From positions 11,590 through 75,589 of the IMG/VR virus record IMGVR_UViG_2802429321_000001: a DNA stretch of 64,000 nucleotides. The stretch is one strand, 5' to 3'. Source of the stretch: a virus. Taxonomy: Duplodnaviria; Caudoviricetes. The translations under genes were made by a program, and so were the position numbers. Positions 42,561 through 64,000 of the stretch are shown here, one piece after another; the stretch's first letter is position 1; every line of letters starts with the position of its first letter. The notes under the pieces were generated by a model that was not told where the DNA came from, did no database searches, and saw only the letters and a program-made list of their open reading frames with translations.

Positions 42561-42607
42561 GCAGGGAGGGGGTTGCTTTTAAAGCAGGGAGGGGGTTTAC
42601 TTACCTC
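42561..42607 (+). promoter_or_regulatory. Candidate promoter/operator of the ORF-HTH-repeat operon
   Basis: GCAGGGAGGGGGTT twice (42561, 42584); palindrome TGCTTT-T-AAAGCA; TTGCTT -35-like; weak -10. Confidence 0.5.
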
Positions 42608-42880
42608 ATGACGACGACCACCACCGCCCGCCGCATCTGCCGCAGCGTCAACCACCACGCCGCCGCCAGCCACACCCGCAACGCCTCCCTCGGCGGCATC
42701 GAGGTCTACTTCGACGCCATCGGCCACGAGGTCACCTGGACCGAATCCGGCCACGTCATCCCCGACAGCGGCCTGCCCTTCGAGTACACCTACCGCTGGA
42801 CCGTGCGCCCCGATCACCGCACCACCGCCGCTACCGTCCAGGACGAGCTCGGCCGCTACACCGTCGGCGTGATCGCGTGA
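42608..42880 (+). CDS. 90-aa hypothetical protein (candidate Acr)
   Basis: ATG after promoter; codon usage strongly C-ending; coupled to HTH gene. Confidence 0.65.
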   Translation: MTTTTTARRICRSVNHHAAASHTRNASLGGIEVYFDAIGHEVTWTESGHVIPDSGLPFEYTYRWTVRPDHRTTAATVQDELGRYTVGVIA

Positions 42881-43395
42881 CCCACATCGAGGACTATCTG
42901 CACCTCAACCGCAAGGCCCTAGATGAACTCCCGCCAGCCGAGCGGATCGCGGTCCTCGCGGACCTAGCCCAGCGAGCGAACAAGTGGCTGGCTGACGCGC
43001 GCTCGGAAGAGATCGACAGGCTGAGGTCGGAACTCGGCGGCGACCAGGCTGTCGCTGAGGCGCTCGGCATCTCCCGGCAGACCCTGGCTGATCTCGGCGA
43101 CGGACCAGCGGTCCAACTCGGCAACGGCGCATGGGCGCGTCCCCGCCTGCTCAAGCGGGGATGCGAGCTGCTGCTGAACTACCTGCCGCCAAGCTCCCAG
43201 CCCCGGGACGTGTTCCAGGCCCTGGAGATCCTCAGTCGCCGTGGACGCCCAGACCCGAAGCAGCTGCAAGCCGCCGCGCATCGTCTGGCCCGGTCAGCGA
43301 GGCTTTCGCCGACGTTGGGGAACGAGATGCCCCAGGACGAGATGCGGGTTCTGGTGCGGGCTTTGACCCACGCGGCGGAGATCAGCAGTCAGTAG
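42877..43395 (+). CDS. HTH protein (Aca-like position)
   Basis: GGDQAVAEALGISRQTLADL. Confidence 0.7.
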   Translation: MTHIEDYLHLNRKALDELPPAERIAVLADLAQRANKWLADARSEEIDRLRSELGGDQAVAEALGISRQTLADLGDGPAVQLGNGAWARPRLLKRGCELLLNYLPPSSQPRDVFQALEILSRRGRPDPKQLQAAAHRLARSARLSPTLGNEMPQDEMRVLVRALTHAAEISSQ

Positions 43396-43405
43396 TACGC
43401 TCGCG

Positions 43406-43538
43406 CCGTTCTCCCCGCACGGGGAGGTGGGTCGGTTCCATTGAGTCGAAACCGAAGCTAGTTCTCCACGTCGGTGGAGGTGGGTCGTACAGTGTGCTAC
43501 CACGATCCGGAGTTCTCCACACTGGTGGAGGTCGAGTC
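43406..43538 (+). CRISPR. Type I-E-like mini-array: three 29-nt repeats, 24- and 22-nt spacers, no cas genes in window
   Basis: NNGTT-CTCC(C/A)C-N4-G(G/T)GGAG-GTGGGTCG at 43406, 43459 and 43510 (third handle degenerate); same 5+6+4+6+8 geometry as type I-E repeats. Confidence 0.72.
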
Positions 43539-43545
43539 ATAGCAG

Positions 43546-43580
43546 AGCCCCAGGTTCCCGCCTGGGGCTTGTTACTGTTT
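43546..43580 (+). terminator. Intrinsic terminator closing the repeat array
   Basis: AGCCCCAGG-TTCCCG-CCTGGGGCT then TGTTACTGTTT. Confidence 0.75.
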
Positions 43581-43735
43581 GCAGTCCGGCGCCCCCGGGG
43601 AGGATCCGGGGGCGCTTGTCCGAGCGGGGGCGAGGACACTGTGGACATCGCCTGACCAGCGGAGATCGTTACTCCGTACGGCTGGCTTGCTTCAAGATTT
43701 GGAACAGTTTGGAGCAACTTGGAGTTGACACGGGG

Positions 43736-43767
43736 CCGCCCTGCTCCGGGGAAGTGGAGCAGGGCGG
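43736..43767 (-). terminator. Terminator-like hairpin at end of leftward early operon
   Basis: 12-bp perfect stem CCGCCCTGCTCC/GGAGCAGGGCGG, 14 nt after the stop at 43782. Confidence 0.6.
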
Positions 43768-63731: not shown

Positions 63732-64000
63732 GCCGCCGCCTTCTCTGTGCCGTCAAGCCACGCGAGCATCGACCGCAGGCTCCGGTCGACTGGGACCATC
63801 GCGGCTAGTAGCACCGCGAGAGCCATTGCCGCAGCAGCATCACCCTGTGACTGGGCCTTGTGTGTGGCGAGGAGATTCCGTGCCTGCCGGAAGGCGGCCA
63901 GTACCTCGCTGCGCTCCATCATGTGCACCGACCAGGCGAGGTTGACTGCGATTGGGACCATTGCGTCGGTGAGCGGGTCACCGGTGAGGGAGGTACTCAT
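63728..64000 (-). CDS. Conserved actinophage hypothetical protein (ATG at window edge)
   Basis: LAVLLAAMVPVD...LAW motif. Confidence 0.55.
   Translation of the reverse strand: MSTSLTGDPLTDAMVPIAVNLAWSVHMMERSEVLAAFRQARNLLATHKAQSQGDAAAAMALAVLLAAMVPVDRSLRSMLAWLDGTEKAAA

Follow-up and report, generated by a model that had tools for sequence, protein, structure and literature searches.

A cas-less array of type I-E CRISPR-like pseudo-repeats in a Kutzneria albida prophage, a candidate RNA mimic of crRNAs

The array considered here is carried by a prophage of ~87 kb in the soil actinomycete Kutzneria albida and lies within a stretch of 64 kb that was analyzed as a whole (hereafter, the window). 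The DNA of the window is present in two public assemblies, one of which is CP007155.1 from Kutzneria albida DSM 43870 (PMC4210621), a species that has since been proposed to be a synonym of K. viridogrisea (PMC13279889). The provirus record in IMG/VR contains integrase, terminase, tail, and immunity genes, and the terminase is 60% identical to the terminase of Mycobacterium cluster phages. The prophage outlasts this record by ~11 kb (window position 64000 onward; L196, L197, and L198), an extension that encodes a sliding clamp, an ERF recombinase, a pair of HTH_31 repressors, and an excisionase-like protein, and that reaches into an immunity region. Beyond the excisionase-like gene lie host genes (GntR/UTRA), and the integrase sits at the opposite end of the prophage. 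In agreement with the preliminary description of the array as cas-less, genes for Cas7e or Cas6e were not found in the provirus record. Searches of the 1-kb array region against phage records returned no similarity, and a DNA search of the 2.2-kb region against 401 genomes of the order returned only noise.

The array consists of three units, all encoded within 133 nt of the plus strand (Table 1). Each unit comprises 29 nt arranged as 5 nt, one arm of a 6-bp stem, a 4-nt loop, the second arm of 6 nt, and a terminal 8 nt, and the start-to-start distances between units are 53 and 51 nt. The layout, period, and spacer lengths given in the preliminary description proved exact, as did three of its finer observations: the stem of unit 1 differs from that of units 2 and 3 by a compensatory A-T to C-G change, the loops differ in all three units, and the 8-nt handle is intact only in the two units that precede a spacer. 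Over a 22-nt core, the identity of the units to each other is 73-86%. The core pattern was counted three times in the window versus 0.07 expected from shuffled sequences, with none of 100 shuffles reaching a count of three, and no further copies occur elsewhere in the 75.6-kb provirus record. The centroid fold of the plus-strand RNA contains the three repeat hairpins and the terminator. No Rfam family reached its gathering score in the window, and the array region gave weak, unrelated matches.

Table 1. Features of the operon and array, with positions numbered along the window.
Feature	Positions	Strand	Description	Basis
Direct-repeat region	42561-42607	+	14-nt direct repeat present twice, around an AT-rich 13-nt palindrome	Read from sequence
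90-aa ORF	42608-42880	+	First cassette gene	Gene called in public assembly
172-aa protein gene	42877-43395	+	Translationally coupled to the 90-aa ORF; possible HTH	
Pseudo-repeat 1	43406-43434	+	Stem CTCCCC/GGGGAG, loop GCAC, handle GTGGGTCG	Covariance model, 26.3 bits, E 1.4e-5
Pseudo-spacer 1	43435-43458	+	24 nt	Read from sequence
Pseudo-repeat 2	43459-43487	+	Stem CTCCAC/GTGGAG, loop GTCG, handle GTGGGTCG	Covariance model, 25.1 bits, E 3.3e-5
Pseudo-spacer 2	43488-43509	+	22 nt; -10-like TACAGT at its start	Read from sequence
Pseudo-repeat 3	43510-43538	+	Stem-loop intact (CTCCAC/GTGGAG), handle decayed	Covariance model, 16.6 bits, E 0.015, handle part gapped
Terminator	43545-43580	+	Intrinsic-terminator-like hairpin of 11 pairs with a T-rich tail; closes the operon	Sequence and RNA fold

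The array begins 10 nt past the stop codon (43395) of the 172-aa gene and occupies a 386-nt gap that separates convergent transcription units. The preliminary description had placed it between an HTH gene and a terminator; the positions and the terminator stand, and the HTH label is tentative, as the 172-aa protein has only sub-threshold Pfam matches to HTH_22/YdaS (E 0.0025-0.0085). Two perfect, G+C-rich hairpins of 10 bp (43589-43615) and 12 bp (43736-43767) are present in the same convergent gap. Both probably terminate the leftward operon, and the 12-bp hairpin also has a weak, sub-threshold match to the mraW RNA motif.

Upstream of the array, the direct-repeat region directly precedes the 90-aa ORF, and an 84-aa ORF encoded on the opposite strand diverges from it; the region is probably the promoter/operator of the operon. 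A consensus sigma-70 scan of this region identified no promoter. The 90-aa ORF has no Pfam match and was the sole hit in an indexed protein search. For the 172-aa protein, 14 relatives were recovered among 1.84 billion representatives and none from IMG/VR. A small homologous ORF (~85-94 aa) precedes every examined relative of the 172-aa gene on its 5' side, and judged from these comparisons the two ORFs constitute a two-gene cassette, rare, conserved, and translationally coupled, that belongs to mobile elements of actinomycetes. Its small protein begins with a conserved ARRICRS-type motif, and at one locus (L239) the cassette comes after an AcrVA2-like gene and an M48 peptidase. Downstream of the relatives of the 172-aa gene (P0003-P0005; four loci, L238-L241), either a terminator only or no units were found. 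Since these loci lack repeat units, the array is better regarded as an add-on to the operon than as part of a conserved unit, and it does not behave as an operator set of the neighboring protein. A conserved acr-aca-racr unit composed of cassette and array was also considered and was rejected, as the cassette recurs without the array (L238-L241).

A pattern derived from the units matched mostly single chance sites across bacteria. In Saccharopolyspora, Murinocardiopsis, and Lactobacillus, the same pattern also matched genuine arrays, whose period is 61 nt, and the actinomycete genomes with pattern-matched arrays encode Cas6e and Cse1. Cse1 is present in 111 of 401 Pseudonocardiaceae genomes, a tally that takes in one unpublished genome (G642) on which none of the conclusions depends, and the low-scoring Cse1 variants of this family, identified by an independent route, adjoin CTCCAC-type arrays. 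A covariance model was built from 11 genuine array repeats, none of them from the window and four of them found only via cse1, and was run unfiltered over the whole window. The three units were the top three matches in the 64 kb and its only significant ones (Table 1), with unrelated sites at E values of at least 0.37. Further, the reverse strands of the units scored 9-12 bits versus 25-26 bits for the plus strand of units 1 and 2. The ranking and the strand scores place the units in the CTCCAC-stem type I-E family, in the orientation of the upstream operon, and the comparison with genuine arrays thereby upholds the earlier assignment to a type I-E-like repeat. The repeat is a CTCCAC-stem variant of type I-E, and this variant co-occurs with Cas6e/Cse1 in Saccharopolyspora, Actinoalloteichus, Murinocardiopsis, and others. 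The cognate genuine arrays have 32-nt spacers and a 61-nt period; the spacers of the window array, at 24 and 22 nt, are thus short, as had been proposed. Several features set the window array apart from a functional type I-E array: its repeats differ from each other, its period is 53/51 nt, it starts 10 nt past a stop codon, the provirus record lacks Cas7e and Cas6e genes, and the nearest searchable relative of the host (G428) lacks Cse1 and Cas6e.

Conservation of the stem was examined in an alignment of 29 units drawn from the window, other proviruses, host arrays, and relics. Changes on both sides of the stem were detected at two of the six pairs. An A-U to C-G change is present in unit 1 of the window and, independently, in provirus L179, and a U-A to C-G change is present in one low-GC phage; two more changes yield G-U pairs. 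It should be noted that the 100% pairing in this alignment is partly by construction, pairing units having been picked, and that the information lies in the double changes. The sequence flanking the stem is both conserved and asymmetric.

The same repeat was found in other viruses. Proviruses L010 and L179 each carry two units and a terminator beside genes unrelated to those of the window, and with L172 and L182 such two-unit arrays with a terminator are present in four non-homologous contexts. Solitary units of the same repeat occur on three viral contigs (L176, L178, and L190), and low-GC phages carry arrays of two or three units in addition to solitary units. On the minus strand of a 139.8-kb IMG/VR contig (L172:5155-5400), two CCCCGC-type I-E units with a 32-nt spacer are followed by two CTCCAC-type units and then by one terminator, a hybrid organization that suggests multiplexing against two I-E variants.

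Elements resembling the window array are also present in cellular cas loci. In two Actinoalloteichus-type genomes (G502 and G480), cse1 is immediately preceded by a mini-array (L255:335-480 and L256:347-490). The handle of its first pseudo-repeat is GTGGGTCG, whereas that of the large array alongside is GTTGGTCG. Its 22-nt guide matches a site ~100 nt downstream that has an AAG PAM and an adjacent -10-like box, with a seed run of 10-14 nt and 15 of 19 scored positions matching. This is the signature of a CreR/CreA-like regulator, here putatively of the CTCCAC-type I-E variant. The mini-arrays of G502 and G480 share with the window units the handle GTGGGTCG and a guide length of 22 nt (24 and 22 nt for the window guides). 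In Murinocardiopsis flavida (L038:1087-1528), the interval between cas3 and cse1 contains a two-unit mini-array that runs in the opposite direction to the cas genes and has a 32-nt guide. An AT-rich stretch before a 58-codon ORF contains a 9-nt seed match to this guide with an AAG PAM, and the element looks like a putative CreTA-type toxin-antitoxin guard of type I-E. In Glycomyces artemisiae (L096:4882-4970), two I-E-like units 60 nt apart were observed in the grpE-dnaJ gap, on the transcribed strand of the chaperone operon, an unusual location for an element of this kind.

Two kinds of viral RNA that imitate crRNAs provide the frame in which the window array can be interpreted. Racrs mimic solitary repeats and trap Cas6 and Cas7; RacrIE1 and RacrIE2 were tested against type I-E (Camara-Wilpert et al. 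2023, PMC10651486). In the second kind, Cracrs, viruses have copied CreR/CreA (Liu et al., bioRxiv 10.1101/2024.10.29.618823, version of 2026-07-28). The array of the window is likely to function as an RNA mimic of type I-E crRNAs that interferes with CRISPR immunity, and on balance we favor, with modest confidence, its being a cas-less guide-plus-decoy of the Cracr type that has been appended 3' to the two-gene operon of the prophage. The proposal of a crRNA mimic for Cascade, whether decoy or short guide, had been made in the preliminary description and draws support from the repeat family, the orientation, the pattern of handle conservation, and the Cracr-like short spacers.

Under the guide-plus-decoy interpretation, the transcript of the operon would extend across all three hairpin units as far as the terminator. 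If the cell has a CTCCAC-type I-E system, its Cas6e would then bind each hairpin and cut at its 3' base. Cleavage would yield two crRNA-like RNAs with guides of 24 and 22 nt, each guide preceded by an 8-nt 5' handle (GUGGGUCG) and followed by a 3' hairpin, with pseudo-repeat 3 supplying only the 3' hairpin of the second RNA. These RNAs may load into Cascade with fewer Cas7 subunits than usual, and once loaded they would withdraw Cas proteins from the immune crRNAs. If, moreover, the guides match a cas or creT promoter, the resulting Cascade would be expected to act as a repressor that does not recruit Cas3.

Several observations support this interpretation. The handle GTGGGTCG is common to units 1 and 2, to relics on the chromosome of G428, and to the cse1 mini-arrays of G502 and G480. 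Stem pairing is kept through double-sided changes both in the window and in independent proviruses, and other proviruses carry two-unit arrays with a terminator in non-homologous contexts. Further, the build of the window array equals that of a tested Salmonella array, CracrIE. Weighing against it are the target searches, which came back empty for both guides in the genomes, loci, and viral sets covered, the dissimilarity of the guides to those of the recovered host mini-arrays, the absence of Cse1 and Cas6e from G428, and the conservation of the flanking cassette elsewhere without the array.

The search for targets covered viral, host, and regulatory sequences. Neither guide has a target in its own provirus, the rest of the prophage, or the host flank, and neither was found in IMG/VR when every sixth position was left free. 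Against 12 cse1/cas6e loci of four I-E genomes no match exceeded those of shuffled guides, scores against 31 upstream regions of CTCCAC-type cse1 equaled those of shuffled guides, and four cse1 loci of the host genus contained no target. Allowing up to three mismatches, both guides matched G428 and the four I-E genomes at control level. For guide 1, four matches were recovered from 401 Pseudonocardiaceae genomes versus three for a reversed control, none of them with a PAM or in a repeat context; for guide 2, one match in metagenomes lies inside an epimerase-like ORF, has no PAM, and is read as chance. The window guides also bear no resemblance to the guides of the recovered host mini-arrays. 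Of the kind of match by which Cracr guides are recognized (at least nine PAM-proximal positions shared with a CreR/CreA guide, or a match to a cas or creT promoter), none above shuffled controls was found in 43 cse1-upstream loci, and none in the genomes searched. The comparison that the preliminary description had proposed, of the spacers with cas promoters and competing phages beside an AAG-type PAM, yielded no target in the material searched.

The lack of a target for either stretch in any search is also what would be expected of a pure, Racr-like decoy, in which the units sequester Cas6e/Cas7 in aberrant complexes and the 24- and 22-nt stretches are targetless. This explanation is the strongest alternative and is nevertheless unlikely. 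Activity of Racrs against type I-E has been demonstrated (PMC10651486), and the viral contigs L176, L178, and L190 carry solitary units of the same repeat. However, Racrs are defined as solitary units and the window contains a three-unit array. Further, the 53/51-nt spacing and the lengths of the pseudo-spacers equal those of the tested guide-type array. Finally, an intact handle is seen in just those units that precede a guide and a decayed one in the unit that does not, a pattern that arrays producing guides need and decoys do not, and it is chiefly this that favors a guide-plus-decoy over a pure decoy.

The preliminary description took the Cascade of the host to be the target, which the searchable relatives of the host do not support. 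The nearest of them, G428, shares 99% identity with the host flank across 3.4 kb. Neither Cse1 nor Cas6e was found in G428, which encodes one Cas1, of another type. Type I-E is present in two of 10 genomes of the host genus, and the array that was recovered (from G517) has a different repeat. The absence of Cse1 and Cas6e from G428, and the different repeat of the I-E array in the genus, leave a target system in the present host unsupported. None of the 120 matches listed among 763 Cas7e relatives is located on the 9,874,926-bp host chromosome.

Units of the same repeat are nevertheless present on the chromosome of G428, orphaned and decayed, among ordinary genes (L220:2964-3053, L221:2983-3011, and L219:2992-3085). 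One of these relics comprises two units with a 61-nt period and has exactly the handle GTGGGTCG. One relic adjoins a DDE transposase, and in two relics the stems pair only via G-U. It is conceivable, though it would be surprising, that the array is not aimed at the present host but at recipients of other genera, or that its guides repress a target other than cas or creT. An aim beyond the present host is suggested by the host lineage having only relics of the matching I-E system and by the handle that is common to the Actinoalloteichus-like mini-arrays. In recipients of other genera, such as Actinoalloteichus-like hosts, the guides could pre-empt CRISPR immunity or silence a CRISPR-guarding toxin. 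If they instead repress a target other than cas or creT, the array would represent general RNA-guided gene silencing by a hijacked Cascade.

The relics of G428 also bear on an improbable explanation, that the array is itself a functionless, decaying relic of a host-chromosome CRISPR array, real or ectopically created. Decay would be in keeping with the orphan units of the same repeat on that chromosome, with the 73-86% identity among the window units, and with neither a target nor cas genes having been found. Nevertheless, spacers of 24 and 22 nt contrast with the 32 nt of both genuine arrays and chromosomal relics, so that deletion would be needed twice. All three stems are perfect, one of them through a compensatory double change, and the array lies precisely between a stop codon and a terminator. 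Moreover, independent proviruses share the same arrangement of repeats and terminator.

Virus-borne mini-arrays with spacers against related viruses are known (PMC11656645), and the window array might by analogy be a weapon against rival mobile elements, its guides directing the Cascade of the host at competing phages or plasmids. This is very improbable, given that the guides are absent from IMG/VR, that BLAST searches with the array against 50,697 phage and 72,556 plasmid records returned only chance-level matches (E of at least 1), and that the 32-nt spacers of cognate arrays exceed the 22-24 nt of these guides. Short guides should, from what is reported of work with shortened E. coli spacers, bind but interfere poorly.

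Least probable of all is a DNA-level element, in which the units would either serve the adjacent putative HTH protein as operators or iterons or be stacked terminator hairpins: 53/51 bp corresponds to about five helical turns, 16-bp inverted repeats could bind a dimer, and the units adjoin a possible HTH gene within a hairpin-rich convergent gap. However, operator sites would be expected to co-occur with the gene for their binding protein, and the four loci of the 172-aa relatives (P0003-P0005, L238-L241) have no units downstream, whereas in other proviruses the same units stand beside genes unrelated to those here. In addition, the conserved flanks lack symmetry and the strands score unequally, the stem varies by compensation, and the sequence matches CRISPR repeats including the 8-nt handle. 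The asymmetric flanks and the relatives' loci without units thus disfavor a protein-binding DNA site, and the DNA operator array raised in the preliminary description as an alternative is disfavored likewise.

The guide-plus-decoy reading, with the repeat family that underlies it, has several implications. The array provides a clear actinomycete example for a newly described class of guide-imitating phage RNAs, and it defines the I-E variant that is imitated by its CTCCAC stem, a handle that ends in CG, and an AAG PAM deduced from self-targets in hosts. The viral handle matches that of host regulatory mini-arrays and not that of the adjacent large immune arrays, which fits with phages copying regulators rather than immune guides. 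Such arrays mark anti-defense loci in actinophages. In addition, arrays with 22-24-nt guides are compact natural scaffolds for Cascade-based repression in antibiotic-producing actinomycetes.

The preliminary description implied that the mechanism is new. Both of the mechanisms it put forward had, however, already been described, the decoy as Racr (PMC10651486) and the short guide as Cracr (bioRxiv 10.1101/2024.10.29.618823), and the window array is a further example of a Cracr/Racr class whose principle was described in 2023-2026. The preprint reports 30 Cracr arrays, of which 20 are I-E, and includes Actinomycetota among the target phyla; short guides are typical of viral Cracrs (bioRxiv 10.1101/2024.10.29.618823). 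The Salmonella enterica prophage array CracrIE is built from three pseudo-repeats, the last of them defective, with 24- and 21-nt guides, and it represses the casA promoter and competes with crRNAs (bioRxiv 10.1101/2024.10.29.618823). The window array is likewise prophage-borne, cas-less, and of type I-E, with three repeats, two short pseudo-spacers, a decayed last repeat, and an 8-nt handle. In terms of the features by which Cracrs are recognized, it is located on a mobile element outside of a CRISPR-Cas locus (provirus genes, no Cas7e/Cas6e), its pseudo-spacers are short (24 and 22 nt versus 32 nt in cognate arrays), and the derivation of its repeats from I-E repeats is indicated by the covariance model of genuine arrays. 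Published Cracr arrays were identified because their guides resemble those of host CreR/CreA, and for one of them a match to the casA promoter was shown (bioRxiv 10.1101/2024.10.29.618823). In contrast, no match of the window guides to host guides or promoters was found in the loci searched. Unlike the Salmonella CracrIE, moreover, the window array has the CTCCAC-stem actinomycete variant of the repeat, and its host lineage has relics only.

In common with host CreR/CreA elements (L255 and L256), the window array has the handle GTGGGTCG; those elements, however, lie in cas loci beside identifiable targets, whereas the window array is located on a prophage and has two guides. The mini-CRISPR arrays with which viruses compete against one another, their spacers being directed at related viruses (reviewed in PMC11656645), are similarly small, cas-less viral arrays that borrow host Cas proteins. 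They differ in having full-length spacers that match rivals, whereas the window guides are short and have no match in IMG/VR, phage, or plasmid records. With Racrs, which form aberrant Cas6-Cas7 subcomplexes (PMC10651486), the window array shares repeat mimicry by a prophage, the absence of cas genes, and a location in an accessory operon, and sequestration of Cas6/Cas7 in the manner of Racrs would also work for it. Racrs are solitary and guide-less, however, and the SRUFinder rule treats clusters such as that of the window as an array or mini-array (PMC10651486); the window array comprises three units, and the conservation of its handle follows the logic of guide production.
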